A stretch of DNA of 64,000 nucleotides from Elusimicrobiota bacterium (GCA_041658185.1 JBBAAR010000002.1:143-64142); one strand, 5' to 3'. Shown: positions 8,088 through 59,400, counted from the stretch's first letter. Numbers and translations are program-made. Notes: a model not told the origin generated them from the sequence alone.

Positions 8088-8111
8088 CGCGCGCGTGCGT
8101 GCGTGCATGCG
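8088..8111 (+). repeat. Alternating pyrimidine-purine tract (CG/TG)n, 24 nt, Z-DNA-prone
   Basis: cgcgcgcgtgcgtgcgtgcatgcg, read directly. Confidence 0.8.
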
Positions 8112-8468
8112 TTCGGAGTCCCGACGGAAAAAATGAAAATAATACCCAACTGGTTATTAAATAAAAATTCAGCGATTAAGCGATTGTTGTTATTGCGAGG
8201 GCGAAGCCCGTGGCAATCTTTAGTAAAAATCGTTTACAGGCGGGTTTTACACCTTTTTAGGAGAGTGTTTTTCTTTCCGGTCGGAGTAAAAAAGGAGAGC
8301 GCCAAAAACCAAAACAACAACACTAAAAAACAAAAAAATAAATGTGAGTTTATCCATTATCAATCACCTCCGTTAAAAGCTGCGCCTATGCTCAAGAACA
8401 ATACAAACAAAATCCCACCGGTAATAGCCATTAACCATGAAAATTTATCTGCAAGCGCAATATTGCCG

Positions 8469-35400: not shown

Positions 35401-38400
35401 CCGCACTTGATTTCCCGACGGGTACTTCGCCCGATTTAACAACAGCGTTATTAAAAGTTCAGGTCAGGATAAAGCACCAGACGGGACCTTACTGGAATCC
35501 GTCGCAATCAACTTACAACATTGATTATGCGACTGCCGCATGGTATGATGCGAATTATCTATCTCCGGATTGTACTTTCTGGATGGCGACAAAACCATCA
35601 TTCACAAATAATACGTCATACTTTATTGAAGCAATCGCATATGATAAAGCGGGCAATACGCCGATATATGTTTCAACGAGGACAATAAAGATAGATGAGC
35701 AACCGCCGACAAGTTATGTCAACACGCCGGGCAACCAGGTCATCAAAACAATAGTAAATAATCTTATTGAAGGAACATCTTCCGACGGTGAGACAGGCGT
35801 GGCAACCGTGAAGTTTTATCTGAGAAGGAACACCGACGACAAATACTACAAGAGTGATATAGACCCGGACTTCTCCGAGACGGGAGTTACATTTAATACG
35901 TTATCTCCGCCTTTGAATAATTGGACATTTAATATTCAGGTGGCGACATTTACATCCGGCACATCATATTGGGCGTACACTTCCGGACAGGATGACTCCG
36001 GCAATGTGGAATCAACGCCCGGAGCTGGAGCAAAAACCTTTGTGTGGGACATAACCCCGCCGACATCAACCGTGACAAATGCGAATGTATTGACTGGTTA
36101 TGCAAATTCATTAGCGACGCTCTCAGGAAGTGCGGAAGATGTAACGCCGACGACACCCGCAGGTGCTCAGAAATCGGACGGGATAAGCAATGTGCAGATA
36201 CAGGTATCGTCATATACAGGTACTGCGTGGTCTGTGATAACCGACTGGCCAACGGGTTCAACCAGCCAGGGCGTAAAAGCCGGGACACAAATATCCACAT
36301 TTACATTTTCTACATCGGCATCGCACCGTATTAGCGGAACCAAGTATCTGATAAAGACGAGGGCGAATGACAATGCACTGCCTGCCTCAGGCAACGCCGA
36401 AAACGGCGACATCAAAGCCGGCTACACGATTGTATATGATGAACTTCCGCCGTCTACCAGTATTTATATGCCGGTTAATACACAAAATTATGGGCCTTCA
36501 AAAGCACTTGTTACAATTTCCGGTTCTGCGTGGGATAATCCTGAAACAGGAGTTGGTGTTTTCAATACAGATGTTTCATCAGTTCAGGTTCGTATTAATG
36601 ACGGCGGCGGTGATAGCAGCTACTGGAACGGCGCCACCGCTTTTGATGGCGGTGAAAATTCGTGGTTCAATGCGAACTGGTATGTCGGTGCATCTTCTTA
36701 CAGTTATACATCGCCGAATTGGTCTGATGGAAAGCAATACACGGTAAATTCAAGAGGACTTGACCGCGCGGGAAATATTGCGATTGCTATTTCAACAAAT
36801 GTATTCCAGTATGATACACAAAAACCCACATCAACAATTTCTCTGCCATATGCACAATGGCATGATAATTTTTCAGTGAGCACCGGCACGGCGCAGGACC
36901 CTGACACCAGTTATGAATCGGATGTCAACAGCATACAAGTTGCAATCAAAAATCTTGATGTTGCCCCACCGAATAATTTCTGGAACGGGTTAAATAATTT
37001 TAATGCTAATGAGGCATCATCGTGGAGAGTGACAACAAAATCCGGCAGCAGTCCCATCTATAAATGGACTTATCCATCCGGTGATACGATGCCCGACTGG
37101 TTCAGTTATGACGGCGTAAGAATAGAATTCCGCTCACGCGCAATTGATAAATCAAACAACACCGAACTTTTCCGTGCGACAACTTTCTGGGTTGATGTTT
37201 CTTCGCCGACCGTTCTCAACTTGACGCCCGCTCAGGGAACCACAAGAATTTCTTCGCTTTTGACGATTTCAGGAACAGCAGTTGATTCACCGTCAACCGG
37301 AAAAGTGAACACGGTAAAAATCCGCATAAAGAGAGAAACACCTCTGGCATACTGGAATGGCAGTGCATTTAGTATTGATTTAACCGATCCGGAGCAGGCG
37401 TGGTTCACACCATCATTGACGCCCGATTGCACAATCTGGTGGTATGGTTTTGACCCGGCGAAATGGGAGGACGGAAAACTGTTTGAACTTAATTCAAAAT
37501 CAATAGATAAAACGGGGAAATACTCACTGACATTTTCAACAAGCAACTTTACGATTGATTATTCCTCGCCGACAAGTTTTGTCGGAATACCGTCAAACGG
37601 CAGTTTTGTAAAAACATTCTCGCAAATTTCCGGTTCCGCTTCCTCAAATGATATTGCAAATACATATATTTCCGTAAAAAATCTTTACAACAATCTATAC
37701 TGGGATGGTGCTAACGATTTCAATTCCGGACCTGTTGTCTGGCGTCCCAAATCAACACTGAATAACTGGCTTTCTTCCGCAACATGGAATTATACTGTTT
37801 TAACACAGGATAAACTAACTTCGGGCGTTTCTTACTATGTAATGAGTTTCTCGTCGGACACTTCTTCGCCGTCTTTAATTGAAACACCTTCTGCTGCAAG
37901 GGCATCACTGTTTGTGTTTGATTCTACGGAACCATTTACGGCGATTTTAACTCCGGACAGTGCATATCACAACTCGTCGTTAACGGCGATTTCCGGAACT
38001 GCCGAGGATTACCCCGCATTTTCCGGCGCAAGGATTTCAACGCCTTTGACGAATGTTGATATGTACATAGTCAGACACGGCTCTAATTCCTCAACGACAG
38101 AAAAATATTTCAACGAAACAAATTTTGTTGAAAACGGCGGTTTGCCTTACTGGATACCGGTTTCAACCGCCAACCAGCCCGCGTGGAATTATTCTGTAGG
38201 TACGGATTTTTGGACACCGTCGTCATCATATACAGTAAAAGTTAAAGCAACCGACCGTGCATCAAATGTCCAGGGGACACAGTTCTCTTATACAAGCAAA
38301 ACATTCTGGTATGACAATGTGCTTCCGACATCAACGGTGACGCTGCCACCGTCCGGCAATCCGCCTTATAAAACTCTTACGACAATTTCCGGCACCTGCG

Positions 38401-41400
38401 AGGATGAAGTGGCAACGGTGAGGACGATTTCAACGATGACCGTTCTTATTCAGGATGTCACACTCGGCAGCACATATTACAATGTTGTCGGCGTTGCGTG
38501 GGTTTCCGGAAGCGAGTATTGGGGCAATTACGCTTCAACAAACTCTGTTGGAACTCAATGGCAACTATCGGTTCCGGATTCCGCGTGGACAAATACTCAC
38601 CAATACAAAATAATAAGTAAAGCGAAAGACCGTGCAGGCAACTGGGAGACATCGTCAACAGAGAAGACATTCGTTTATGATGTAACCGCTCCGACATCGG
38701 TTGTCGTTGTTCCTGCAAAAAATACCGGTTACAAAACTTTACCAACAATTTCCGGGACAGCATCGGATGCTTACAATTTATCAGTCGTCAAATTGTCAAT
38801 AAAACAGAACGAACCGAACGGATATTATTATTCCACAGGGAGCAGTTCATTCACAGCTGCAACTGAAACATGGTTTGATGCGAAGACGTTAGACGGCTGG
38901 GCAACATGGTCTTCTACAAGGGCATCCGCAAATTCCTGGAACGATATTTTAGAAAGCGGAAAGTGGTATATTTTAAGGTCTTCTGCGACTGATATTGCAA
39001 CCAACTGGCAGACAATTTCATCTTCTAATGTGTTCACTTTTGATAATATTGCACCGCTTACGGCAGTTGTGACACCGGTTCAGTCATCAACTATTTCTGC
39101 CTTGGGGACTATTTCAGGCACGACTTTTGACGGCGCATCAGGACCATCAGCAGTAAAAATCTCTATCAAAGAAATAAATACTAATCGTTATTGGCAGGGC
39201 GGTGCATGGGGCGGCGCCGGCGGTAGTGAAGTGTATCTGGTTGCTTCAACCGGTGTAGTTGTCGGGAGTACCTTGACATGGACATATCCGGGCTTCATCG
39301 GCGGAACGACACCGGGATGGAATCCCGCAGGTGCTGACTATGATATGCATGTCTACGGTATTGATAATGCAGATAATCCTGAGATTGTTTCTTCAACCCG
39401 AACTTTCCATTTTGATGCACAATCACCGACGACACTTGTGACTTACCCGTTAATGAATGGAACATCATTCTTCCATAATTTGCCGACGATTTCGGGCACT
39501 GCATTAGATAACAAAGCCGGTATCGCTTCCGATGCAGTAAAAGTTGCAATTAAGAAATCCGGCGGGGATTGGTATGACGGCGCTGATTTTGTTTCACCAA
39601 CGCCGCAGTGGTGGGTTGCAACAGGCACATATCCATGGACTTATTCAATTGTAGATGCAAATTACGCGGATGCATCAACCTATATTGCATATTCATCCGC
39701 AACTGACAGGGCAACGCCTGCAAATTTACAGACAGCGGTTTCGTCCAGAACATTTACTATTGACCGTTCATCGCCGACCTCAACGGTTATTGCTCCGGCA
39801 AATGATTCAATTATAAACTCACTGACCTGGATTTCCGGAGATGTTACGGATACGGTCAGCGGTCCGAAAAATGATGGGACTGGGACAAAAGTGATGCTCA
39901 CATATCTATCAGGGGCAACAACAAATTACTGGACCGGCTCCGTTTGGACGACTACGGAATCAACGGCATCAACAACCGGAACGGAAACATGGCAGCTCGC
40001 CGCGCCGAATTTTGCGGGACTTTCACAGACGAGGTTCTATGTTAAATCCGTTACCGAGGATAATGTCGGACTGCGCCAAGAAACAAACAACACAAAGTCA
40101 TTCGTATATGATGTTACAGCACCGACATCCGCAGTTACACTTCCTGTCAATAATGAGTATTACGGTCCGTCCAAAACACTTCCGGCAATATCAGGCACAT
40201 CAAACGACCCGTATACCGTGACGGCGGCGTCAATTTCCATACAAAAATCTTATCAGAGCGGTTTACCTTTGCCAAATACGTTCTGGATGTTCTCATCTTC
40301 AAATTGGGGCGAGACGCAGGAATGGAAGATTTGCACGCAGTTAGTCGGCGGCAGTTGGGCAACATGGTATTTCAATGTTCCGGATGCCGCACCCAATTAT
40401 ATCTGGTCTAACGAGGGTGTTTATAAAATTTATGTAAAAGCAAAGGATACGGCCGGTAATGAAAGCAGCGGGTCTGCATTTTATGTTCAAAACATCAAAT
40501 ATGATACAACATTACCGGTTTCAAATATTTCTATTCCAAACAAACCATACTATGGACAGAATCTAACGACTATATCAGGCGGCGCCTCTGATAGCGGCGG
40601 TTCTTCACTTCAAAAAACGCAAATTCGTATAACATGGCCCGCCCAGGCAACCCCGCCGAGTCACGGTGGTGCGGAATATTGGAGTACTTCTCTCAACAAC
40701 TGGACATCTGATTCCGGCAGTTGGAACGATACCACTCCGCCTGCTGCGACATGGAAATATACTCAAATCTCAACTTCAAATTACACGGAAAATCATTATT
40801 TTGTGATTGAAAGCAGGGCGTTGGATAATTCAAATAATACACAAACCAGTATTTCTTCATATACATTTACTTTTGATATAACCCCGCCGGATTCGTTGCT
40901 TACAAAACCGAATCCATCTATAAGTAAATATAACGCCATCCCTACAATTTCAGGTACCACATCTGACAATTACTTAATGAAGACATCCACGCCGGTTGAG
41001 ATAAGTATAAAGGAAATATCAACATATGGTTACTGGGACAATACCGCAGGTAATTATATGGGCTTCTCCCCGAGGGTCTGGAATGTTGTTACTACGACGG
41101 CACCGTTCCAACTTACTATAAAAACAAACGGACCGTTTGGTACGCCATGGTTGAACACCGGAAGTTATGAAGTTGTTTCTAAAAGTTATGATATGGCCGA
41201 AAATGCCGAGGTGTCTTATTCAACTGCTACATTTATATATGACATTTCAGCACCGGATACTCTTGTTGTTATGCCGTCAACCGGAGCGGCTAAAACATAT
41301 CTGGCATTGCCGACCATTTCAGGAACCACCGGGAGTGATGCTGTTTCAGTCAGGATTGCCGTTCAGAACACAACGGACAAAAAATACTGGGACAATTTTG

Positions 41401-44400
41401 GCGACGGTTTATGGGTGGATGGCTATAAAGACAATCAGCATGCTGGTGTAATTGTTGCCAACACATGGAAGTTTTATAATCAGAACGGTTCTTTTAATGC
41501 TGATGATGATTGGCCTGCTTGGACAAGTAATACCTCATACTATGTCTGGGCTTATACGGTTGATGACGCTACCAATCAGGGTCCTGTGCTTTCAACCGCG
41601 ACATTTATGTTTGATAACACGGTTCCGCAGTCGGCAGTTGTGAAGCCGGCCCCATGGCCTTCTTACTACAAACAGGGTTCTATTACAACAATTTCAGGTA
41701 CTGCTTCCGACCAGACCAGCACAGTTGTTTCACCCGTAAAGTTTCAGATATTAGAAAACGACCCTGTCGGGAATACTTCATATTATTATTCCGGCGGCGC
41801 CGGTGGGTTCAATAATGCCGCGGAAACACCGCTGAATGCACCGTTTGTCGGCGCCTCTTCAGGAACCTGGAGTTATGACGATGTATTTCTTGGCGGTGCT
41901 TACCAATCCGGCAGATATTACAATGTCCGCTCATATGCGAAGGACTCAACCAATAACGAGCAGTCAACCAATACAATTACATGGAACAGATTTTTGTATG
42001 ACACCGCCAAGCCGACTTCAACTATTACAAAACCGCTTGCGGATACTGCCTGGCTGAAAACCGATATTGTTACGATTTCAGGCACTGCATCAGATAATGT
42101 AGAATCGCCGAAACATTATTCCGGTATCGCAGATAATACCAAAATAGAACTCTCAATACTTAAAGAGCCGAATTCTTATTGGTACAGATGGACCTCTTCC
42201 GGCACCTGGCAGACAGGTGTGAACTGGTTCAATTCAGCCAATTATGATGGTAGTAATCTATGGTATTATGTATTCCCGCAGCCGGACGGCTCCGATTTTG
42301 ACCCCGGCAAGTATTATCAAATCAAAACCAGAATAACCGACAGAGCCGATAATCTTTATAATACACAGACGGCAAACAGATTCCTGGTTCGCGCGGATGC
42401 CGCATACTTTGTGGTCTCACAGATAAATGTGCCTACTGCAGGCGGCTCATCCGACCTCAAAGTAGAAGTGTTTAATAGTGAAGGCGGTCTCGCGGTTGAC
42501 TATGATAAATGGATTGAGTTTTACACGCCGAACGGGCCCGAGGGTTCTGGACTACTACCGTCGACAACCAAATTCTTCGGCGTTTCGGAAGGCGGCGTGA
42601 AATGGATGTATGCTTCACAGGGCTGGGGTGTAACACTGCGTAAAGCTGCAAACAATACTGCTTTCAATCCGGGTACCAGAACCGTTTATGTCCGAGAAGT
42701 CGGCGCGCCGGGCATCAACAGTCAATCACCGCCGGCACCTACGGCATCACAAACCGGAATAGTCGTTAATCCGCTGCCTTGGACAAAATTGAGAGTGCTT
42801 GTGCCGTCTCAAACTCGTGACCCCGGTAATACTTCAACCAATGGTAGATCCGGAGGCATTGCGACACAGACAGCAGGGAATTCCTTCACAATTATTGCTG
42901 ATGCCTGTGACGACTACTGGAACCTTGTTGATACCGGTACTCCTGTTAATGTTGCTTTTGATGACGCAGACGACCCATATGCTATTGATGGCGAGGGCTT
43001 GTATCAAATCACCGCCGGCTCCGTCGTCGTTTCGGGATTAAAATTCCGTGTTGCCGGTAACAATAAAAACATAATTATCTCAACATATACTAAATCCGAT
43101 ACTTCCTCAAATATAGATGTCAATTATGACTCTGCCAATAAACTTTTAGTTCTTGCTCCCGGTGAGACGGCGCAGCCGGGGTCTTTATTAGGTAAAACCG
43201 GTGCCGTTGTTGCCCAGACCGCAGGTGCTCCATTTGATGTAACTGTAAATGCCTGCGATTTATACTGGAACAAAAACCTTGCTGCGTCTCACATTACTAC
43301 AATGACGACTACTGATGTTTATGATACCGAACCCTCAACACGCGCTTTGACGAACGGTTCTACAACATTTACGCTGACGCTTGTTACTGCCACAACTCAA
43401 TATATTTCCGCACTTGCTACCGGTCTTACTTCAAATACGACTTATGTTTATATCAAACCGAATCTTGCAACACGACTGCAACTGTTGGTTCCCGGCGAAA
43501 CGCTCGCACCCGGTAAACCTGGCGGAAAAAATCAGGTCTATCAAACATTTTCCGCTGGTGTGGATTATGTTGTTACAGTCAACCTTGTTGATAACTGGTA
43601 CAATATCCAGAAGGATACAGATATGCCGTCAGTCCGGGTTTATACACTTTCACCGACTGATGTTGACCAGACATATTCACTTATAAATGCTACAAGGACA
43701 TATACGATTAATTTCACAGCTGCCGGAAACAGGCAAATAGAAATAGATAATCAAACAGGATACCTCAATTATGATGCCAGTGCGTCTACTACGGTTGTGG
43801 TGATACCTGGTGTTGCCGACCGCCTGCGGCTGCTTATGCCGGGCGAGACAGCACAGGGCTATCCGGCAGTTACGGGAGGTAAGATTGGGAGTCCGTCGGA
43901 AAGAACAGCGGGTGTCAATTTTTCAGTAACAGTTCAGGCCTGCGATGTTCGCTGGAATACAACAACTTCCGGAGGCAACCAATCAATAAGGGTTACAGCA
44001 CATTCTTCCGACCAACCCTATACACCTAATATATGGACGGATAGTTTAGCATCTAACGGTGAGAAAATCATTTCCGGTATTTATGTGAGGAAAGCGACAC
44101 CGACTACTTTCTATGTTGAAGATATAGATATTACGGAGCCTGAGATGTCAACTCAGACGGTGTATAATGTTTCCGTCGTGCCAGACCCGACAGCCAACCA
44201 GTTGAAACTTCAACTTCTTGTTCCCGGTGAAACTGCAATGGCCGGCAAGAATACCTCCCCGCTTGGCAAAACAGGAACACCTTCTGAAAGAGTATCCGGT
44301 ACGCCTTTCACGGTAACGGTAAATCTTGTTGATGCTAACTGGAACAAATATAACGACGGTCTCACTGTCGGCGCAACTGTGCAGATAACAACGGATGACC

Positions 44401-47400
44401 CGTATGATACTCATCCGTCTTCAGCAGCGCTCAGTTTCGGGGTGAAGACATTTACCAATACTTTAATAAGGGCTGCGACATGTCTTATAACCGCGGCCGA
44501 TGTGGACGGTATCGGCGACCAGTACGAGCAGGATATATCGCCGCAGGTGACTACTGTCTCCGGCAATCCGGTTAAACTTCAAATTCTCGTTCCTGATGAA
44601 ACTCCTGTCCAGGGTTCCGGAAAGAGCGGGTTCGTCCAGAACCAGACGGCGGGAATTAACTATACTGTTACCGTAAGGGCATGCGATACTAACTGGAACC
44701 TTGTTACAACAACCGCACCTACCGTTTCGTTGATATCAAACGATAATTATGCCGAGATAGAAACGGCGCATGCATTAACACAGGGTGCGACTACATTTAC
44801 CGTTTCTTTAAGAGCGAATACCGCCGAAGTGGCGTCCAGAAGTTTGACGGCAACTTACGGCGGGTCTATGTCGCAGCAGCAGTCCGGCAACTTTATTGTT
44901 TATTCGTCCGCACCTGTAAAACTTCAGATTCTTGTGCCTGGTGTAACTGCTGTTGAAGGAGATGTCTCAAATAACGGGAGAACCGGCGACCCGGATGAAA
45001 TGACTGCAGGTATCAATTATACTGCAACAGTTAATCTGACCGACCCCTATTGGAATAAGGTAATTTCACTTGGCTCGGACACAACGGTCCAGATAACCGC
45101 CTCGGCGCCTTATTACAATCAGCCGGCAAGCAATTATCTTGAAGACGGAACACGGTTGTTCACGCTTGCGGTTCTTTCATCCGGAAGTTGGACGGCAACC
45201 TCGTCGGATGTTGACGGCGTTCCCCCGATTTATACTGCCGATACATCCGCATTAATACCGGTTATTTCTTCCGGTGCGGTCAAATTACAGGTGCTTCTGC
45301 CCGGTGAAACAGCAGTGCCCGGTAGCGGGAAAACGGGTACGCCGTCTAACAGGACCGCCGGGCTTCAATTCACGATAACGGTTAACGGCGTTGACCCGAA
45401 CTGGAATATAGACGGCGCCGCAGGGCATCTGGTTACGGTTGTAACTACCGATGAGTTTGATGCGAATCCAGGCGCCAATACTCTTTCATCAGGTCAGAGA
45501 ACGTTTGACATAGTAGGCGGGAATAAAACAGCGGGAACACTTGTTCATAAAGCAACTGCAACCGCCTCCGGACTTAATGCCGGGTATTCCTCCTATTGGA
45601 CAGTTGTTGCTTCCGCTTCGGTTCGTCTGCAACTTTTGATGCCGGGACAGACCGCAGTGCCGGGCTCTTCAGCGGGAAAAACAGGAACTCCTTCCGCTCA
45701 ATACTCAAATGTGCCGTTCAATGTTACCGTCAACGCAACCGACCTGTATTGGAATAACTCAATAACCGGCGATGGCGATACTGCCGTCCGGCTTACTTCA
45801 AATGATGAGTTTGTATCCTTGATAGATAATAATTTAGAAAACGGGACAACGAATTTCTGGGTAACATTAAAGAAATCAACGCCCACCGCGCAAATTACAG
45901 TAATTGATAATTCAGGCGGCGCTGTGAGAACCTCAACATCTGCGTTCTGCGTCGTCAATTCATCTAATGCCGTAAAACTTTTAATACTTATGCCGGGTGA
46001 AACATATCTGCCGGGTTCTACGACAACCGACGGCAAAACCGGTTCCATTTCAACACTTACCGCGGGAACTCAATTTCAGTTAACGGTTAAGGGCGTAGAT
46101 GTCAACTGGAACACGGTAAATATAGCCCAGCAAATTCGTGTAGAAACACCAACCGATATTTATGACACTAATAATATTGACCAGTGGCTGCAGACGGGAG
46201 GGCTATGGTCTGGAACGACTGTCTACTGGTGGACATTCAAAACGGCGTCCGCCGCTCATCAGATGAAGGCGCTGGATATAGACGGCGACAGCACGCTTTT
46301 AAGCACATATACTCAGACAGGAATAAACGTTACTGCCGCTCCTGCCGCACAACTTCAGATAATTTTGCCTGGTGAAACTGCGGTTGCGGGAGACACCGCG
46401 AATAACGGAAGGACCGGCTCGCCGTCCACTCTTACCGCCGGAAATCCGTTCACGGTTACGGCAAATGCTGTTGATAATAATTACAATATTTCAAGTTCCG
46501 CTCAGCAAATAAAAGTAACTTCTGACGATACAAACGCGCCCGGTCCCTGGACCAGAATTTTGCAAAGCGGAACCACCTATTTTTCGCTTACGCTCAATAC
46601 CAGCGGATATGTTACGCTCACGCTTGCCGACGATGAGTTAGGTACTTTGCCGAATTACCCGCAGGATGAGAGAAGTGCAGCGGTTATTTCCGGCGATGTC
46701 GGCAAACTGCTTGTGCTTATTCCAGGCGAAACGCACCAGCCCGGAAATACATCAGTTAATGGAAAAACCGGTACGCCCGGCAATCAGACGGCAGGCATAA
46801 CATTTATGGCGACCTGTTATGCAACGGACAACTGGTTCAATATAGTATCCACCAATCCCACGCTGCCCGTCCGTTTAACTACCGACGACCCGAACGATAC
46901 ACCGAGTTACATTGATTTAACTTTGACTGCCGGCACAACTTATTATCCCGTGAAATTGAGAACTGTAAATAATTCCACAGACGGTTCAATTTGGGTAATT
47001 ACCGTTGCGAAAACCGGGCTGGTTTCATCAACATCAACCGTGAAATTAGGACCCAACAGCGGTGATAACAAACTTCAGATTTTAATGCCGGGCGAAGTTG
47101 CGCAGCCGGGGACCCAGACCGGCAAGGACTCAACCGGACTGCAGACCCGCACCGCCGGTGTTTCATTCTCGCTGACCGTTAATGCGGTTGACAATCAATG
47201 GAACTGGGTTAAGTTCACCGACTGGCCGACCAATTCAAATCAGAAACAGGTTACCGGTGTTTCCGTTGTGACAACCGACCCATATGATGCAGACGATATA
47301 AATAACCAGGACATCACCAATCTCGGTCAGCGAACATTCTCACACGCATTTGTTACAGGTGGGAGTCCGGGAAAAACTTGGAAATCAACCGCAACCGCTT

Positions 47401-50400
47401 CGGGATATACATCCGATTCATCGCCTTGGGTAACTGTCGTCTCATCCGGCGCGACAAAACTTCTGGCGATTCTGCCCGGCGAGAGTTGGCTTGAAGGTTC
47501 TCCGACAGGTAAGACGGGAAACCCGACAGCAAGAACCGTTTATAATACATTCACAGTAACTGTCCGCTCGGTTGACCCGAACTTCAACTATGTAAATTCA
47601 TCAACACATACCGTGAAAGTTACGACAAATGATATTTTTGACAATGATATAGGAGAGTTGGCGCTTAATAACGGTGAAAAGAATTTTAACATTCAATTAT
47701 TTACGGCGCAGATGTCCTCAATCACCGCACAGACAGTCGGTGTCTATTATTCAACGCTTACGCTTTCAAACTATACCTCGCAGGAATTTTTATGCGTGTC
47801 ATCGGCTCCGGTGAAATTGCAGGTTATTGTTCCCGGCGAAACGGCTGTTCCAGGTTCATCAAGCGGATATACCGGCGAGGCATCCACAAGGACAGCGGGC
47901 GCACCTTTCGTAGCAACGGTTAATCTTGTTGACCTGAAATGGAATGTCACAACCACATATGCGCCGATTGTTTCTGTTGACACGGATGACATATACGATG
48001 CAGAACCCGGCAATTTGCAACTTACAAACGGCACGACATATTTTGTATTCACGCTGGTTAAGAAATCCACCGGGACAACAATTATCGCGTACGCTACCGG
48101 TTATTCTACCGGCACCTCACGGTTTGTGCCGGTAACTTATGGCAATCCGACGAAACTTATGGTTCTGGTGCCGGGCGAGACCGCTTTACAGGGTTCTCCT
48201 AACGGAAAAACTGGCACGCCTGCCAACCCGTTTGTTGTCAATTCAACATTTACGATAACGGTCAATGCCTGCGACCCGTATTGGAATATAGTAAAAGATA
48301 CAGATCCAGTTGTATCTTTAACTACAACTGATTTATTTGATGATGAAACATTATTACAGGGTGCGTTAGTTAAAGCCGACGGTTCAAGGACATTCAATAT
48401 CACATTCAAAACCGGAAATATGCAGGGATATAATTTGAGTTATGCGACGCAGACGATTTCCGTAAGTCCAAGCGGCTCTGTGCTTACTTCAACAATAACT
48501 CCTACTCTTACTGTCAATCCGGCGACACAGGACCGATTGCTCGTATCGGTTCCGGGAGAGACAATTATTTGCGGAACAACTACTGCAACCGGAAAAATCG
48601 GCTTACCCAATACACAAACGGCAGGTATCGGTTTCTGGATTACCGTCAACGGCTGTGACAACCAATGGAACAGACAGCCGAATACCGTAGCGACGGTAAA
48701 ACTTTACACGACCGACCCCAATGATAATTCTTACGAGCCGTCAGCGTTTAATTTGCCCAACGGAACGACAAATGTTTATATTACAATGGTAACTAACGGC
48801 GCGTGGAAGATTTGGGCTGAGGACCAGGACGGTACGGCTGTCGCCGTTTCAACTACTTCTGATATTACGATAGATGCCGGCGCTTTTGTTTCGCTGAACC
48901 TTTTAGTTCCGTCCCGAACACAGGTTACGGGTGTCGGTAATACCGGCACTGTCCAGCCGCAGACGGCCGGCGTGCCGTTTCAGGTAACTGTAAATGCCAG
49001 AGATTCCAATTACAATACAAAAACAACAATTACAGATACGGTCAACATTGTGACCGACGACCTATGGGATACTGAGCCGTCAAATGTCGCCCTTGTTTTA
49101 GGGACTACCTGTTTCTGGATTGATTTGCGGACAGCAAGAGTAAGTTCTGCCTGCGCCACCGACATTAGCGATTTCGGCAAAAACTCATCAACTGCGGCAA
49201 TAACCGTTTCTCCGAGAAATGTGACACCTGTATTTTTGCAACTTGTTATGCCTGGTGAAACCGCTGTTCCGGGAAAAGGCGAAGCGCAAGTTGGTTCACC
49301 TATTGGCGGAAAATCCGGGGCTCCTTCTCAAAGAACTGCCGGCTCTCCGTTCACTATAACATTAAATGCCTGTGACAGATACTGGAATAAATTTACATCT
49401 TATGAACCGGGGCTCGGTTCCGATTGGCCGGCCGTCGCAAAAATTGAAACGACCGACCAGTTTGATGCGGTGATTTCGTCAAAAGCACTGACAAACGGAA
49501 CCACTGTAGTAAGTTTAACATTCTTCACTGCCGGTGTGATTTACTCAACGGCAACTGACATAATATCTGGTGGACCTGAGTGGAATAGTTATAGTTCGTC
49601 GGTTGCGGTGGTTGCCAATTCCGGTTCAACAAAGAAAATGCACATTCTCTTGCCCGGTGAAACGCCGCTGCCCGGTTCATCAACCGGGAAAACTGGAACT
49701 GTGATAACGCAAACGGTTATGAACCAATTTACCGTCACCGCGCGGGCGACCGACGAGTGGTGGAACATTTTAACCGGTGATCCTCAGGCATCGGTTACTG
49801 TTACAACTCCAAATGACCCATATGCCACCAGTTCACAAAATAGTACACTTGTAGCAGGGTTAAAAACATTTACAATTTCGCCGACTGGTCCGTGTTTTGC
49901 GATTTCAACATATACGGTTATGGCGGACGCCGGCGCTCAATATACTACATATACGACGGCTAATTTTGACGTTGTTCCAAATACTACTACGGCAAAATTG
50001 CAGGTGCTTGTTCCGGGTGAGACCGCTCTTCCCGGTTCGTCAAACGGTAAAACCGGCTTGGTTACAAACAGAACCGCCGGCACGCAATTTTTCGTTACCG
50101 TCAATCTTGTTGACTCCAGATTTAACAGAATAACCGGAACTCTCCCGCAGCCGGCAGTTGTAATTTATACCACCGATTTATATGATACCCAGCAGGGATA
50201 TACATCGCTTACGAATTATACGAAACCCGACTTCCCGGTTATGTTTGTTACAGCAGGAAGTGCCCAACTTTGCGCTTCAACAACCGATTATTATTTCCAG
50301 AATTATCATTTTGAAGCATCAACCTCTCCGACACTCACCGTTGATGTAGGTGCGGCGGCTCGTCTGCAGGTCATAGCCCCCGGCGAAACGGCTGTCCCCG

Positions 50401-53400
50401 GTTATTACTCCGTTGCGGAGTCGACATGGACGGGAAAGACCGGTTCTCCAAATTGGGCTGCCGCCGATTCCGCATTTTCTGTTGTTGTCAACATTACAGA
50501 TGGTCACTGGAACCTGGTTCCATCCGCCAATACAAGCGTCCGCCTTGAAACATCAGATACAAATGATGCCGACCCGTTCCCGTCAGCAGCCGGTGTCTCA
50601 ACCGTCGGCGGTACAACCAATATAAATGTAACTATGGTTACAATGGGAACATGGACGGTTACCGCCGTTACCGTTCCTCCTGGCGTCTATACATCAACTA
50701 CATCAAAAGGGATAAATATCAGACCCGGCGCCGCATCAAGATTCCAGGTTCTTGTGCCTAATCAGACGAATGCACCGGGAACTTCAACGGGCAAAACTGG
50801 AACCGTCGCTACGCAGACAGCCGGCATACCGTTCGGAGTTACCGTCTATTCAACGGATAACCTGTGGAATATAATCGGCACTACATACTATGTTCTTGTT
50901 GATATGGTGACAAACGACCCTTATGACATTCATCCGTCGTCCCAGCCGCTTCAGGACGCAACAACTTATTTTACAGTAACGCCTGTTACACAGCAGATAA
51001 CTACCTTGACTGCGCAGACAACTTGCGGACTAACGTTGAATAATTCAAGCACGATGACGGTAGTTGCCAATACTGCCGAACATTTCCTTTTGTTAATGCC
51101 CGGTGAGACAGCCGTGCAAGGTAAATGGAATGAAACACCATATGGTAAGACAAGTAATCCAACTGAACGGACAGCGGGTTCCCCATTTTATGTTACTGTA
51201 AGAGCGGTTGATGATTTCTACAACTGGGCGGCGGCGAGTTTCCTGGTGGATTTGGGTTGCACGGATTCTTACTGGTCCGCTCCCACGGCTAAACAACTTG
51301 TAAGCGGATATACGACATTCTATGTTACACTTTATACCGGTAATAACGGTGCAATGACAGGACCTGCTACACATCAAATTTGGGCTTGGGATAATGATCC
51401 TACGCCGCCGCCGGACGTTACCATTTCAAGTTCACCTGTGATTACTGCGGTTCCGGGAACGAGAAGTCGCCTGCAAGTGCTTATGCCCGGTGAAACGGCT
51501 GTTCCGGGTAAATGGTCAACTTTGCCATATGGAAAGAATGCTTCATTTGATTCATATGGAATACTTACTACCACCCAGACAGCAGGCAGTCCGTTTGTAG
51601 CGACTGTCAATGGCGTAGATGCACAATACAACCGTGTTTATAATGGTCTCGGCAGCGATGTCAGTGTTACAGTTCAGTTGGGCGACCCATATGATGTGCC
51701 TTCCAGTCAAAACAAGCCTCTGTCCAACGGGACAACTTTGTTCACATTTACACCTTTATTGGCAAATACAACAACCGATATATACTCGCAGGCAAGCGGT
51801 TACGGCGTATGGTATAGTACTTTTGTAAATGTTAAGCCGTCCGGTCCTTACCAGTTGCAGGTAATTCTGCCGGGCGAAACGGCTGTTGAGGGTCAGGGTA
51901 AAACCGGCTCTCCTACCGAAAGAACCGCCGGCAGTATATTTAAGATAACCGTCAACGGCGTAGATTACTCGTGGAACAAGATTATTACGGATACATCGTC
52001 AAAAATAAAAATTCAAACTCTTGACCCGTTTGATGCAACACTGCCGTCGCTGTTTTTACAGGCGGGCACGACTTATTTCCATCCGACGCTTGTTACCGCG
52101 GCGACATACTGGACGATAACCGCATCAACGGATACGACTGCCGCCGCCCAGAATTATCTGCCGAATACATCAACATTATTTACTGTCTCCGCCGCCGCTA
52201 AAGACCGTTTGCAGGTGCTTGTTCCGAATGAAACAGCGGTGCCCGGCGATTCGGCGAACAGCGGCAAAACCGGTTCAATTACTACAAAGACGGCCGGCGG
52301 GACATTTACAGTTACCGTCAACGGCTGCGATCAATTTTATAACAAGCAGACATCAGATAACAGTACTTCCTTAGTGTTGGAAGTAACGGATGGTTATGAC
52401 GAGCCGCCGACTCAAAATCTTGCTTTTTCACAGGGCCAGCAGACATTTAATATAACGCCGGTGTCCGTTTCAACATTTACTCAGGTGAAAGTAGTCGGCA
52501 GCGGTTATTCAGACGGCTGGTCGGGTCTTATAGATGTTACACACACCTCGCCGTATCGTCTGCAGGTAATTCTGCCCGGCGAGACCGCATTACCGGGTGA
52601 ATGGTCAGGTGGGTATGGTGCAATATCACCATATGGTAAGACAGGTTCACCCGCTGCACAAACGGCCGGCACTTTATTTACCGTTACTGTAAACGGTGTT
52701 GATATCTACTGGAATAAAATTACATCATTGCCCCAGTCAACATCAACTATAAAACTGGACACAAGCGATATCTATGACATAAACCCGACTAATAAAGCGC
52801 TTACGGACGGCTCAACTACCTTCTCTGTTACGCTTGTTACCGTTTCTACATACACCGTTGCCGTCGCTTCCGACGCTACCGTAAATTATTATCCGAACGA
52901 CCCGAACTCATCGGCGTTGGTTTCCGTCGGTCCGGGTGCAAAAACACAATTGCAGGTTTTGGTTCCGGGCGAAACTCAGGTCCCCGGCAAGTGGAACAAC
53001 GGAGTTAACCAGCCGCCATACGGAAAGACAGGTTCTCCGGATACTCAGCCGGCTGCGACATATTTTAAGGTAACCGTTAACGGATGCGATAACTACTGGA
53101 ACACCGTAACCGGTGATAATTCCGTGCAGGTTTGGGTAAATACGGATAATAACTTTGATGTGGTGCCTGCAACCACTACATTACAGGGTGGAACAACATT
53201 CTTCTGGCTCAATTTGAGAGTAACGGGATTAAGGAAAACAACCGGTTATGCGGAAAATGATGCGTATTCAATGGGCTCGTCAACATTTATACCGGTATCT
53301 GTCGGTGATTATAAGAAGCTGCAGATTCTGGTGCCTGGCGAAACTGCGGTTCCGGGTGATGTGGCTAATTTTGGCAAGACAGGTTCGCCTGCGACGATGA

Positions 53401-56400
53401 CTGCCGGCGTTCCTTTCACGGTGACTGTCAACGCCTGCGATGACGCATACAATATCAATCCAAGTATTGTCAGCCAAATTGATATTTGGACGACCGACCC
53501 GTATTCTAATTATTATTTGTCGGACGGCGAATCAAACGCAATTTTACAATCAGGGACAACATATTATCCGCTCACGATGGTAACTGCTTCGCTGTGGAGC
53601 GGAACGACTTATACTATAACAGCATATGATTTGGATAGTATCGATCCATTACATCCGCAAAATACTTCACCCGGTGTGCCGACAACTTACGGCGATGCCG
53701 TAAAATTACAGGTCTTGCTGCCGGGCGAGACGGCTGTCCCTGGTTCGCCAACCGGTAAAACGGCAGTAACGCCGTCAACACAAACGGCAGGGGTCCCTTT
53801 CATAATAACGGTTAACGGCGTTGACTCCAACTGGAACAGGAACCTTACTGTTGCCGAGCAGGTGACGATTCAGACGACGGATTTATACGATACGGCGCCG
53901 TCGGGCCAGGGTCTTGCTAACGGTACCACGACATTTTCTATTACGTTTAAAACCGGCGCCAAAGGACTTACGCCGCGAACTACTCATCAGATATGTGCCA
54001 CCAATCAGCCGGGTTATACGCTGGTTTCAAATACTTCAACTGTCGTTGCCTGCAAACCGGATTCCATTTCAAAACTTTTAATAATTCTGCCCGGTGAAAG
54101 CGCGGTTGCCGGAAAGAATACCGAACCGTACGGAAAGACCGGAAATCCCGGGAATTGGACAGTAGGCGCATCAACCGGTATAACAGTAGTTGCCTGTGAC
54201 AGCAATTTCAATGTCAAAGATGTCAACCAATCGGTACAGCCGAACGTGTATATTTCACTTTCGGACCCGTTTGATGAATCCAATCAAAATCTTTCACTTT
54301 ATGCGAATGGCTATAGAACATTTTCTGTTATACCTTTCACGGTAGGATTATGTTCTGCTACTGCGTGGTCTACCGGATACGAGCAATACACATCAACAAA
54401 AGTTACGGTTGTTGCAGGTGCAGCGACACAGTTGCAGGTTCTGGTTCCGGGAGAAACCGCTCGTCCCGGTGATACGTTAAACAGCGGGAAAACAGGCGTA
54501 CCTGATAGTGATGGGAATAATGCCAACGGTGTCCAGTCATTTGTTGCAGGAACTGGTTTTAAGGTAACTATAAATGCCTGCGATGACAAGTGGAATGTTA
54601 ATTCGGCTGATACATCAAACATAGAGATTACGACAACGGACAATTATGATACTGCTGACCCTGCGAGCAGAACACTTCAAGGCGGGGTGACATATTACAC
54701 TGCGACGTTCATAACTTCGGAAGGGGTGGGAAGCGGAATTACAATTACTGCTGTTGACAACAGCAGTCCGTTTATGAATCCCGGCACCTCTGCCAATGTC
54801 CCGATGGTTCCGGGAACACCGGAACGGCTACAAATACTTGTGCCGGAAGAAACACCGCTTGCGGGTTCTTCATCAGGTAAAACAGGCAGTATAGCAATAC
54901 AAACAGCAGGAATGCCGTTCACAGTTATCGTTCGTGCCTGTGATAGCAACTGGAATATAACACAATCATCGCCGATTGTTCAACTGACAACTTTTGACAC
55001 AAATGACATTGACCCGGTATCTTTCCAGTTGGAAGCGACCGGTACGAAGACGGCGAGCATCACTTTTGTAACGTCAGGAATTTCCTCTATGACAGTTGAT
55101 GACACCGAGGGATGGGGCTATACTTTTAATTATTATATCACGCCGCAAATCACTGTTAACCCGAGCGCTCCCGTTAAACTTCAACTTTTAATTCCGAATG
55201 AGACATCGCTTCCGGGTTCATCAAGCGGTAAAACCGGAACCGTTGCAAGCAGACAAGCGGGTCTGTCGTTTGATGTCACAGTGAATCTCTGTGATACCAA
55301 CTGGAACAAAGTGCCCAATCCCGCCAGTTATAATCCGGGTTCCTGGCAGAAACCGATACCGGATGTTAAAATAACCTCGCCGCTCGACGGCTACGATGTT
55401 GAGCCGGATACAAAAACGCTTGACCTCGGCTCATATATATTCAATATGACTTTGAGGATGGCATCCACACAGCATCTGAGAGCGGAAGATATTGACGGTC
55501 AGTCACCCGGTTATGCAGCCAACAATTCTTCAACTTTCTCTGTTACGCCCGCTGCCATTGCCGGATTACAAATACTACTTCCCGGCGAGACGGCAGTTCC
55601 CGGTTCCGGGGATTATACAATTGATCCAACAGGAGGCAAAACGGGTTCTCCTTCTAATAGAACCGCGGGAATACAGTTCACCGTCACCGTTTCCCTTGTT
55701 GACCAATATTTCAACGTAAGAACTGAAGATGATTCAACACATGTATGGGTTGAGACCAATGACCTTTATGACGCCCAGCCGACCACCCAGACGCTTAATG
55801 CCGGCATCGCATATCTCAATGATACAAAACTTGTAACAGCGACAACTTTTCATATATTTACAACGGGAAATGGTGTTAATCCGTCATGGAACATTTCAAG
55901 TCCGCTGTTCACCGTCGCATATTCAACGGCTACAAAATTGCAGGTAATTTTATCAGGTGAAACATCGGCACCGGGAAAACCGCCTTACACGGATAATACC
56001 GGTGGAAAAACTGGAACGCCTTCTACAAAGATTGCAGGCGCAGCATTTTCAATTACCGTTTATGCGACGGACGATTACTGGAACAGGATAACGGCAAATC
56101 CTCCAGATCCAATAAATATAGGAATAACATCACCCGACCCGCTGTTTATTCCGCCAACATCTGCAACTCTAAATAACGGTTTTAAGGAATTTAACATCGC
56201 AAACGGTTTAAGAACCGCATGGTCAACCAATACCGTCTGTGCATCCGATATAGACGGCACACTGCCAAACCTTGCCGCATCAACCTCAACAATAGTAAGG
56301 ATTTATCCTGAGCCGGCAGCATTTATGGCGTTTTCGCAGGTGCAGTCCGCTGCCGTTGCCGGAAGTCCGATATATCCGCGTCTGACCGTATATGATAAAT

Positions 56401-59400
56401 TCGGTAATGTATGCTCCACAGGCACGAATGTTTATACAAACAGTGTTATATTCTCTGTTCCTGCGGAGGAGATGTTCACCGGGAAACAGGAGCCGTCAGT
56501 TCCTGCAAACATCACATTTACTTCTCTTTATGCCGGCACTACCGTTCTTTACAGCGGTCATCCTTCCGGTCCTTATGTGTTAAAGAAGGCGGGAGATCTT
56601 CATATCCATGCTAATCAAGTCGGTAATGCGACAATTTCAACCAACAGACCTGCTTCTCCACCTACTACGTATTTCGGCTCCACTGACCCGACAATTACCG
56701 TCTCCGCAGGACCCATACAGGCGGTTCTTGTATCTCCGAATATATCCGCGGAAGACCCGACGAATGTTTCCCCCTCGCCGCCTGGCAGAAAACAGATAGA
56801 GGGGCAGGTTGTGGACGAGTTTGAGAACTCAATTTCTTCCGACGGGATTACTTGCTATATTAGCGTTGTTGACACGGGAACGTCCACAAATATCGGTAGT
56901 GTTAAAGATAACAGTTCCGTTGTCTGGACATCAACTACCACCGATACAGGCGGGAAAGTCGGCGGTGCGCTCGGTAATCTTTATTATTATGTTTCCACTA
57001 AAAAAGCTGATTTTGCAAGAATCTGGATAGCTACAATGACTGCCCCGTCGGATGTTTCACAATTTGTGAATCTGAAACAAAATATTTCGGCAAAAATGCT
57101 CACCATCGGCGGCAACCCGGAAAAACTTGTGTTTATTTCATCGCCGACATCTGCAACCGCCGGCAATTATTCCGAAAAGGTTAAATATATCATTGAAAGG
57201 CAGGACTCGTTTAACAACCCGACGGAGCAAATGCCTGCATCAGACATTTCGCTTCTTTTGCCTCCCGGCGAACTTACCACCCACACCAATTCAGGAAAAA
57301 CATATCAGTTAAATTTCGGCTTCCGTAATGCGGGCGACAATTTTATAAGCAGTGTAAAAATTCCATATGAAGATGCTGCGGCTGATGTCGGCGGCGCTCA
57401 ATATGTTGCCAGCCGCGCCGCATTCTGGTATAATGACGAGATGGCATCTGTCCCTGTAGGCGAGGATAGCAGAACAGGAACCTGGTCAATAACATCAAAA
57501 CTCGGAACATATGAGATAACACACAACCTCCCTGTCAATTCCGCGCAAGCGGTCAAGGTTGCTTTTGATAATCCGTCCCGGACGCTCACGGCAGGAAAAG
57601 CGAAATTAGGTGCCGCGGATGTCAATTTTGAGGTTGAACTGCAGGATAACTTTAATAACCCGGTGTTTTCAACCGCCCCCTTCGTTGTTAATCTCACTGT
57701 TGAAAGAACTGCATCCGCAAATAACGATGCCTACGGGTTTTCAAATTCAACCGTTACGGTTCAACCAATATATCCGACAGGGGGATTTGTAATACAGATT
57801 ACATCGGTCACAATACCTTTGGGATATTATTATGCAACATTCTATTATCTGGATACCTGCTCCACGGAGTTACAGGGTGTAGGAAAACCAAAAATAACTG
57901 CGACACCGCAGTGGGCGATAGCATCTTCCACAAACGGGCCGACTGTTATTGCGGATGGAATTGCCAAGATTGCCTTCCCGCAGACATATTACGGCAACCT
58001 CACGGCCGGGACAACTTCCGGCGCCATCTGGATTCAGACAAGAGACATATATTCCAATCCTTCGGCGGTAACCGCCTCCGAGGTGTTTGAGTTAACATCA
58101 AACGGAACCGGATTTAAGAAGTTTTATTCGCCTAACAGCGGCTGGTTGGTAGGAACCGGGCAGTGCAAGATGAATCTTGGTGAGAAAACAACATTTTTCT
58201 ACTATCTGGATGTTGTCGTCGCTACTCCTACGCTTTCCGCCGCGAGAAGCCCGTGGACAGCGGAAACCTCATCCATAACGGTAGTCGCCAGCAGGGTTGA
58301 GTCGCTTGCCATAGAGTTTTCTGGTGTTCAAAGCAGACGGCTTATAGCAGGTACAACCATACAATGTTATCCCGATTATAACACAACCGGTTCAACCGAT
58401 ACGAGGTTTATAGTAAGAACCCGCGACCTTTACGGCAACATTACTGCGCCTACAATAGATATGTATCTTGATATCCAGAGCAATTCGCTTGACGGTGATA
58501 TCGGCGATATAAACTTCAACTGGTACGGGTATAACGCCGCCGGTAAAATTCTTATTGCTTCAAATACTACTGATGGCGTATTCTATTACCGGGATGAGAA
58601 AACAGGTAATCCTATAATTACAATAGCAGAGAAGGCAGACCAGTTTGTTTATGATATTGTAAATGCTACGACATCGCCGACTATCACGCCTGCAAAAGCA
58701 TCTGATTTTTCAGTTGTGAAACAGGTTGAGAATATCTCCGTTAATACGCCTGCAAACGTTTTAATAATAGCAATAGATGATTTTGGAAATATTGCTGCGG
58801 GCGACTCAATAAACGGCAACTATTATATCGGAACCGCTTCATTCAGCGTGTCGGGTAAAGGAACCGTTACACCAAACCAATATACATTTACAACAGGTGA
58901 AAGCGGCGATAAAGGGCAGCACCCGATACAGGTTCAATCAAAGTATATTGAGCCGTTAAAAATATCTGCGACGGATTATGTTACAAAGACAGGTCAGTAT
59001 TCAAATGACCCAAATAATTGGATAACCGGCTGGACGGATGGCATGGGTATCCCCGGTAGCCCGGGTTCATCAACGGATTTATCAACAAAAGGCGGGTTAT
59101 TGGCCACTGATGACCAGGCGCCCGAACCTAATAACCTTGCCAAAATGGCGATTGGGATTGCTCAATATCTATATCAGGGCGATGGCTATAGAGCCGACTC
59201 ACCGGCGCCAAAAGCCATGGGGCGTCTCTCACTTAAAACGGTTCCCAGCGGGAATCTCTACTGGAATAACTTGAGGGTAGATCTGTCGTCAGGAACAGGC
59301 GGCTGCAGCGCTACCACCGGAGAGATAGGCGAGATTGCACTTTACAGAGATGCTAACGGCAACGGTTTATTTGACGGCGAAACATCACTTGGAGGCACAC

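Follow-up and report, generated by a model that had tools for sequence, protein, structure and literature searches.

A tandem array of 37 copies of an immunoglobulin (Ig)-like domain, for which the sequence databases searched hold no family model, is encoded in a 64,000-nucleotide stretch of DNA from an Elusimicrobiota bacterium (GCA_041658185.1 JBBAAR010000002.1:143-64142). This whole stretch was analysed and is referred to below as the window. The array lies on the positive strand within a single gene for a protein of ~18,900 residues, and each copy carries a near-invariant motif running from a PGETAVPG segment through a GKTG element to a TAG...VTVN..D..WN segment. This motif probably acts as a stability clasp within each domain, with the array as a whole forming a rod segment of an exported surface fibre or adhesin.

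A profile hidden Markov model (HMM) built from 16 seed modules divides residues 11584 to 16095 of the open reading frame (ORF) into exactly 37 contiguous modules of 111-134 amino acids (aa) with no linkers, each matched at an E-value between 1e-21 and 1e-40, and finds no further match below E = 1e-3 elsewhere in the giant protein. An initial annotation of the window had correctly placed the start of the array at nucleotide 42780 and given its approximate number of modules (~37) and their size; the end that it gave, 56290, however, falls 25 nucleotides short of the true one. In the alignment of the 37 modules (A1), numbered according to module 15, G20, D42 and N46 are invariant and L4, P9, T12, G16, T37 and G75 are conserved in at least 90% of copies, within the consensus xxKLQxLxPGETAxPG..GKTGxP..TAGxxFxVTVNxxDxxWN...TxDxYD...LxxGTTxF. 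The residue that follows D-x-x in this consensus is W in 67% of the window modules, Y in 18% and F in 13%. Set against a mean pairwise identity among the modules of 33% (range 19-50%), this degree of conservation agrees with the initial description of a motif conserved far better than the rest of the module.

The repetition is kept at the protein level, since Tandem Repeats Finder detects no repeat in the DNA. A back-translated pattern for PGETAVPG is observed 8 times where 0 occurrences are expected, with codons that vary between copies, which together with the missing DNA-level repeat indicates that the repeat is old and that the motif is under selection at the protein level. Recent tandem duplication or homogenisation of the modules is ruled out, because pairwise identity is independent of the distance between modules and no repeat is found in the DNA. 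Low identity between neighbouring domains is expected of tandem Ig arrays that are selected against inter-domain misfolding, as in arrays of the titin type.

As the initial annotation had anticipated, no named family can be assigned to the module. Neither Pfam-A nor NCBIfam matches the 4,503-aa array, the 37 modules scanned singly against Pfam at E ≤ 10 yield no recurring family (the lone related match being Invasin_D3 at E = 0.037), and a sequence profile search of the PDB with the module returns nothing significant. Big_1 (PF02369; gathering threshold 34.9 bits) is matched neither on the array at E ≤ 1 nor in any of the 37 single modules at E ≤ 10. AlphaFold2, with the 37 modules serving as the alignment, predicts a single module to be an all-beta domain of ten short strands, with a predicted local distance difference test score (pLDDT) of 96.6 and a predicted template modelling score (pTM) of 0.88; in module 15 the strands include residues 3-7, 11-13, 21-23, 33-41, 54-59, 69-71, 76-82, 87-95 and 107-110. 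The top matches of this model in a Foldseek search of the PDB are all Ig-like sandwiches, with template modelling (TM) scores up to 0.70 and E-values down to 3e-4. The best of them are Ig-like domains of glycoside hydrolase family 2 (GH2) beta-galactosidases (TM 0.68-0.70, E ~3e-4), and further matches include filamin repeats, macroglobulin MG domains and transglutaminase C-terminal domains. The module is confidently predicted to be an Ig-like beta sandwich. A model of two adjoining modules (pLDDT 93.6, pTM 0.85), in which the residues at the junction reach pLDDT values of 97-98, suggests that neighbours adopt a defined relative orientation; when this pair was searched with Foldseek, SbsC, InvE, filamin and CbhA Fn3 structures matched domain by domain only (TM 0.3-0.4).

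A connection to a known family is reached through a class of shorter modules of ~97 aa (alignment A4; for example in homologues P0015, P0038, P0046, P0084 and P0143), which have the consensus TAGxxFxVTVTAxDAFGN..GYxGTVHFTSSD..LxxGxGTF..TLKTAG.QTITATD. Alignment of A1 with A4 by hhalign gives a probability of 98.75% and E = 1.5e-16 over A1 columns 22-116, and the A4 HMM matches all 37 window modules. When short modules were scanned singly, 20 of the 27 matched Big_1 (best E = 1.4e-6), 8 Invasin_D3 and 6 Big_3_5, with the Big_1 matches falling under the Pfam cut-off wherever a bit score is given. At the level of whole proteins, those of the short class show sub-threshold Big_1 and Big_3_5 matches, and those of the full class show no Pfam match over their modules. 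SbsC is, in addition, a weak sequence match of the short-class profile. These relationships point to the ~95-residue core of the module as a probable remote homologue of Big_1/invasin-type Ig domains, reached transitively. The resemblance to Big_1 first proposed thus holds as probable remote homology by way of the short class, although no Big_1 match is obtained by score, and the suggestion of an uncharacterised Ig-like subfamily is supported, the module being unmodelled and probably a distant relative of Big_1. The short class also provides a side observation: its C'-E-F segment (LTNGVGTFSVTLKTAGSQTIT) weakly matches a segment of antibody CH1 domains, with whole-sequence E-values down to 3e-5 and per-domain E-values of ~1, which is probably a likeness at the level of fold or composition.

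The module and its short or Big_1-like relatives have in common the TAG turn, the B strand, the Asp/Asn turn between strands B and C, and the LxxG turn between strands C' and E. Two features are specific to the family described here, namely ~20 N-terminal residues of the form LQxLxPGETAxPG-(0-14 variable)-GKTGxP, and an aromatic residue, mostly Trp, replacing the Gly in the DxFGN turn of the relatives. D44, N48 and G78 are invariant in the short class as well (D34, N38 and G67 in A4), and because they are common to both classes they are most simply read as turn-forming determinants of the fold.

An exhaustive HMMER search with the module profile against 1.84 billion representative proteins (clusters at 50% identity) returned 5,735 matches at E ≤ 1e-3, of which 2,965 have E ≤ 1e-10 and 777 have E ≤ 1e-30; the family is not rare. 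Among the best 150 of the 5,735, 124 proteins contain full modules, up to 29 per protein, and 26 contain only short modules of ~97 aa, corresponding to profile positions ~25-118. The 37 modules of the window form the longest array among the proteins examined, many of the matches being fragments. A word-indexed protein search with the same profile retrieved 2 fragments only. In the NCBI records, the best matches are named 'hypothetical protein', 'beta strand repeat-containing protein' or 'RHS repeat domain-containing protein, partial'; the 'beta strand repeat-containing protein' P0012, with 11 modules, is from Mucilaginibacter psychrotolerans (WP_133231127.1). Searches with tblastn against phage and plasmid collections gave no matches, and full-text literature searches produced no paper on the module among the titles and abstracts listed.

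Taxonomic spread was surveyed in one genome per GTDB species with the pattern [LV]PGETAV[PE]G, hits being confirmed by tblastn with a six-module subset (A2). This procedure recovers 66 loci, a list biased to copies with exactly that pattern, and the best identity to the window modules is 71%, so that the genome from which the window comes is not one of the GTDB representatives surveyed. Elusimicrobiota/Endomicrobia account for 48 loci, followed by unclassified 'bacterium' entries (6), Bacteroidota including Pedobacter (3), Verrucomicrobiota including Pedosphaera (3), Chloroflexia (2), and single loci in Gemmatimonadaceae, Ignavibacteriaceae and Obscuribacterium; the one remaining locus, in Streptomyces, is spurious, no module having been found there. 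At most related loci an open frame fills the whole ~6-kb stretch that was fetched, with up to 19 modules. Very large genes, encoding at least 10,000 aa, are reported to be frequent in Elusimicrobiota (bioRxiv 10.1101/2023.11.21.568195), and Elusimicrobia or Elusimicrobiota are among the phyla named in reports on huge or giant proteins (PMC11573180; bioRxiv 10.1101/2023.11.21.568195).

Conservation of the signature extends across the family, as seen in 728 full modules taken from proteins other than the giant one. Glycine is retained at positions 10 (88%), 16 (95%), 22 (97%), 25 (84%), 33 (89%) and 78 (96%), together with P9 (93%), D44 (98%), N48 (97%) and D64 (89%). E11 is present in 80% of these modules (Q in 14%) and K23 in 73% (R in 11%), and position 47 is aromatic in 91% (W 63%, F 16%, Y 12%). 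Other parts of the motif are less general. The TTDxYD segment, highlighted in the initial annotation, proves to be largely local to the giant protein, with only its first Asp kept family-wide (89%), and the details of the NGTT segment are likewise less general in the family than the core signature. Directly before the invariant Asp, a Cys is found in 14 of the 37 window modules (38%), the others having V, T or R, which bears out the proportion of about one third first noted; a conserved functional residue is not borne out, as this position is V in 66%, T in 19% and C in 9% of the 728 modules. A functional or disulphide-forming Cys was ruled out on these grounds, namely its exchange with V and T and its low frequency family-wide, and because modules mostly contain 0-1 Cys.

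Covariation was examined in 765 full modules, with statistics that are uncorrected for relatedness among them. An acidic residue at position 11 is associated with a basic residue at position 23 with an odds ratio of 20 (p = 5e-38), against a background between consensus residues of ~3 that reflects subfamily structure, and replacement of Glu11 by Gln is often accompanied by replacement of Lys23 by I, V, N, Y or L. The two positions fall on two short predicted strands, residues 11-13 and 21-23, and from this we infer that E11 and K23 may form an ion pair that fastens a small N-terminal hairpin. The highest mutual information after average product correction (APC) is found for the pairs 13-41, 5-13 and 5-41, with 5-47 high too, and positions 5, 13, 41 and 47 switch jointly between 'Q-A-N-W' (244 modules) and hydrophobic or aromatic combinations of the form L-[LFY]-[YR]-[WFY], such as L-Y-R-W, L-L-Y-W and L-F-Y-F. 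Because these four positions switch together, it appears that the N-terminal strands are packed, within a single module, against the end of strand B and against the aromatic residue in the B-C turn.

The effect of neighbours can be judged from the modules at either end of the arrays in homologues. Position 47 is aromatic in 95% of first modules versus 92% of internal ones, and G22, K/R23 and G25 are as frequent in last modules as in internal modules. Since neither W47 nor GKTG is relaxed in terminal modules, the motif is taken to be a feature of the single module, and the covariation argues for mainly an intramodule structural clasp that is not a P-loop. The idea that the motif is kept only for docking of like neighbours was downgraded for the same reason, with the qualification that the ends of the arrays may abut other Ig-like domains. 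A separate observation concerns profile position 32, where the Ala of the T-A-G turn is present in 48% of the last modules of homologue arrays (P0003-P0152) versus 89% of internal ones (p = 1e-15), suggesting a specialised terminal variant of the module.

Taken as a whole, the probable role of the array can be outlined as follows. The near-invariant motif would be a determinant of folding and stability in each module, in which an ion pair of Glu11 and Lys23 would hold both short N-terminal strands together and the packing of Gln5, Ala13, Asn41 and Trp47 in a cluster would fasten this extension to strand B. At an assumed ~4 nm per Ig-like domain, modules placed head to tail without linkers would form a long and probably fairly stiff rod of ~150 nm, one segment of an exported cell-surface fibre or adhesin of ~18,900 residues. 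A cell-surface location is supported by homologues with 6-9 modules and ~2,000 aa that end in Por_Secre_tail domains, one of them also containing SprB and PKD domains; Por_Secre_tail is matched in P0035, P0039 and P0060 at 37.7-44.6 bits (cut-off 27), with P0022 as a borderline case. Several points weigh against this interpretation. The contacts proposed within the module are drawn from covariation and predicted secondary structure, and the stalk or spacer role is suggested by analogy with other giant adhesins. Pfam scans and PDB sequence searches within the window found no ligand-binding head domain in the giant protein, whose C-terminus (the last ~257 aa) is situated beyond the end of the window. 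The tail of P0154, an Elusimicrobiota homologue used as a guide to that end of the protein, is only weakly similar to tails of the type IX secretion system (T9SS), with NCBIfam E-values of 4e-4 and 5e-3 and no Pfam match to Por_Secre_tail, and it weakly resembles FlgD-type C-terminal domains too.

Other readings of the conserved residues were weighed against the structural clasp. If each module were a binding unit, for instance a lectin-like one, E11, K23, D44, W47, N48 and D64 would make up a repeated ligand site and the protein a multivalent adhesive array. Sugar-binding sites typically feature conserved Trp, Asp, Asn and Lys, the best structural neighbours lie in glycoside hydrolases, and the equal conservation of the motif in terminal modules means that its role is independent of a like neighbour. 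However, the GH2 Ig-like domains that were matched are neither catalytic nor sugar-binding domains, no carbohydrate-binding family was matched in Pfam by the array or by single modules, and the invariance of D44, N48 and G78 in the short class marks them as fold determinants and not as a family-specific site. The way in which E11-K23 and positions 5/13/41/47 covary, resembling compensating changes of packing and ion pairs, is also structural behaviour, and a binding role is considered unlikely. The same residues could instead lock the rod, through Ca2+ held at the junctions or through an isopeptide bond between Lys23 and an Asn or Asp with Glu11 as the catalyst. Intramolecular isopeptide bonds are known from Gram-positive pilins and a Mobiluncus giant adhesin, and junction Ca2+ from the BIg repeats of RTX adhesins and from cadherins. 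Such a lock would agree with the confident, fixed junction in the two-module model, with the location of conserved residues in loops that standard Ig topology would put at both poles of the module, and with the joint loss of E11 and K23, which is also expected of a catalytic Glu and a reactive Lys; cross-linked Ig-like repeats are described in a giant adhesin (PMC10619420). For an isopeptide, though, the substitutions are unfavourable: Arg at position 23 (11% family-wide, 8% in the window) and Gln at position 11 (14%) cannot support such a bond and fit an ion pair or hydrogen bond instead, and no third partner tracks K23, as N41 and D64 covary at background only and D44 is invariant in 105 modules without K/R. 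Ca2+ at the junctions is at odds with a motif that is not relaxed in terminal modules, with Pfam scans that find no RTX nonapeptide (HemolysinCabind) or related family in the 18,656 aa of the giant protein within the window, and with an acidic residue content of 7.8% in the array. Either form of lock is judged decidedly improbable. A further proposal, rated as quite unlikely, combines parts of these ideas: the N-terminal extension (E11-K23 and Q5/A13/N41/W47) would be a mechanical clamp, or a covalent or metal lock, guarding the edge of the A strand, and the domain would be a hallmark unit of load-bearing surface fibres hundreds of nm long in Elusimicrobiota and a few other phyla. The A-strand edge is the usual start of force-induced unfolding of Ig domains.

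Two readings are given almost no weight. A Walker-A motif or P-loop, making the modules nucleotide-binding, is suggested by a superficial likeness of G-x(n)-G-K-T to GxxxxGK[ST]; it is rejected because GKT follows the preceding Gly at a distance that varies by 0-14 residues and because K-T-G, in a domain that is all-beta, is predicted to form a beta strand with no helix after it. Some modules also have R, Y or N in place of the Lys, and no P-loop family was matched in Pfam by the array or by single modules, in line with the doubt about nucleotide binding already voiced in the initial annotation. The chance that the repeat is an artefact of assembly or annotation, or non-coding repetitive DNA, is just as minute. 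Metagenome assemblies can mis-assemble repeats, but the frame is free of stops over 56 kb, modules that are 19-50% identical with no repeat at the DNA level leave nothing to collapse or mis-join, the codons of the conserved motif vary between copies, and hundreds of independent homologous arrays are present in other genomes. The structural clasp in a surface rod remains the favoured interpretation of the array.

The array is one segment of the giant protein, the other parts of which are listed in Table 1. The gene is contained in a single frame (+3) that runs without a stop from 8031 to the end of the window (63998; 18,656 codons). In the gene call on the source contig (ENA ERZ27247322 k141_299182; 182,877 bp), to which the window was assigned by an exact search with the neighbouring genes, the gene starts at record position 8289, corresponding to window position 8133, and continues for ~257 codons beyond the window.

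Table 1. Features of the giant gene, in window coordinates.
Feature	Position	Strand	Basis
Giant gene containing the array	8133..64000	+	Open frame and gene call on the source contig (18,879 aa)
Hydrophobic segment TVPVFLPVFLLMFICLIN, followed by ..KVYA/DD	8625..8678	+	Translation read by eye
First array, of a different module type (W-rich, ~123 aa, DxAGN-type turn)	9603..42455	+	Self-BLAST clustering, offset histogram, sequence read, sub-threshold Big_3_3
37-module array of the unnamed Ig-like domain	42780..56315	+	HMM segmentation, alignment A1, AlphaFold2 models
Reference module 15 of 37 (structure prediction, residue numbering)	47808..48146	+	Alignment A1 and AlphaFold2
Isolated short-type module (Big_1-like, ~97-aa class)	58680..59009	+	A4 HMM, E = 5e-8
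Third repeat region, ~190-aa units with motifs W.GL.IE.TG ... D..I.LYKD (I.LYKD.N..G)	59553..63605	+	Self-BLAST, homologue search, pairwise alignment

Several ATGs could serve as start codon of the giant gene. In its sequence the hydrophobic segment resembles a signal peptide or a membrane anchor, and the closest in-frame ATGs upstream of it, at 8469, 8388 and 8133, place it 52-164 residues 3' of the candidate starts; the residues directly ahead of it are specified by non-start codons (GTC AAG GGA AAA ATT). The region from 8133 to 8680 may be a long N-terminal leader or membrane anchor. Directly 5' of the called ATG at 8133 lies a G+C tract of alternating purines and pyrimidines, CGCGCGCGTGCGTGCGTGCATGCG, at 8095-8125 on the positive strand.

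The first array spans ~10,950 aa and is organised as a super-repeat of ~620 aa (~5 modules), with offset peaks at 620 and 1210-1240 aa. The 37-module array is followed by a stretch of ~1,080 aa that contains one short-type module. The sequence right after module 37 (56316-56630, positive strand), AAFMAFS..AVAGSPIYPRLTVYDKFGN, resembles a short-type (DxFGN) module and gives no significant score with either the full-module or the short-class HMM. The third repeat region has no family match and is 60% identical to P0154, a protein fragment from an Elusimicrobiota metagenome-assembled genome that is the closest relative of the C-terminal region. P0154 continues for exactly 257 residues beyond the point that aligns with the end of the window, a stretch comprising an fn3-like domain (Pfam E = 0.0011) followed by a beta-sandwich tail beginning NYPNPFD, and by this homology the giant protein probably ends in the same two elements. 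A Pfam scan of the whole in-window protein yields nothing above threshold and only sub-threshold Big_3_3 matches, and PDB sequence searches with the N-terminal, linker and C-terminal regions return no matches.

The giant gene is preceded on its strand, in this order, by genes for a UvrD/PcrA helicase, GatC, a GatA-type amidase, a glycosyltransferase with PMT_2 and TPR domains, and a NifU-like ORF; the last ORF before the giant gene encodes 176-181 aa and has no family match. The glycosyltransferase gene (4405-6591, positive strand), which precedes the giant gene by ~1.5 kb, is of the PMT_2/GT-C type, resembling protein mannosyltransferases, and includes TPR repeats. The array contains 15.5% Thr and ~2 N-x-S/T sequons per module, and it is conceivable that the giant protein is glycosylated by the product of this neighbouring gene.

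Of a protein of ~18,900 aa that is nearly devoid of database annotation, 4,500 aa can now be described. The array represents a distinct family of Ig-like domains whose signature is clear, whose boundaries are defined and whose fold is predicted with confidence, and is a good candidate for a new family. A curated model would annotate many giant proteins now called 'hypothetical' or 'beta strand repeat-containing', and would help to define the surface architecture of Elusimicrobiota, a phylum with few cultured members. No new mechanism is revealed, as tandem Ig-like stalks of giant surface proteins are already well known.

Among known domains, Big_1 (PF02369) and Invasin_D3 (PF09134) are the natural comparison. 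These are likewise bacterial Ig-like sandwiches, of ~90-100 aa, that occur in tandem in surface adhesins, with a B strand that leads into an Asp-x-x-x-Asn turn and an LxxG turn ahead of strand E. The window module keeps the Asp and Asn of the former turn but has Trp, Phe or Tyr in place of its Gly, carries ~20 extra N-terminal residues predicted to form two to three short strands, measures 111-134 aa in contrast to ~93, and lies far from the Big_1 threshold. The short ~97-aa class is homologous to it over the whole Ig core, shares the invariant Asp, Asn and Gly, and likewise occurs in long tandem arrays, with 12-34 copies, and as one copy in the giant protein itself (Table 1); unlike the window module, it is without the PGET...GKTG extension, has Gly and not Trp in the turn, and gives sub-threshold matches to Big_1 and Big_3_5.

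At the level of whole proteins, the closest parallels are the Ig stalks of giant adhesins and S-layer proteins, such as SiiE, the BIg repeats of RTX adhesins, the Mobiluncus mulieris adhesin and SbsC, in which tens of Ig-like domains likewise follow one another in an exported protein of very large size; the Foldseek matches of the two-module model include SbsC domains and InvE, an adhesin of the invasin family. The window protein differs from these in that scans of its in-window part detected no RTX or type I secretion system (T1SS) signal, LPXTG motif or autotransporter domain, and in that its modules gave no evidence, in their sequences, of Ca2+ sites or covalent cross-links. The predicted geometry between its modules is unmatched by solved tandems (TM 0.3-0.4), and its host belongs to the Elusimicrobiota. 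The SprB-like T9SS proteins of Bacteroidota offer a further parallel: although the window protein is ~10 times longer and comes from another phylum, homologues combine the same modules with Por_Secre_tail domains, and a similar protein, P0012, comes from Mucilaginibacter.

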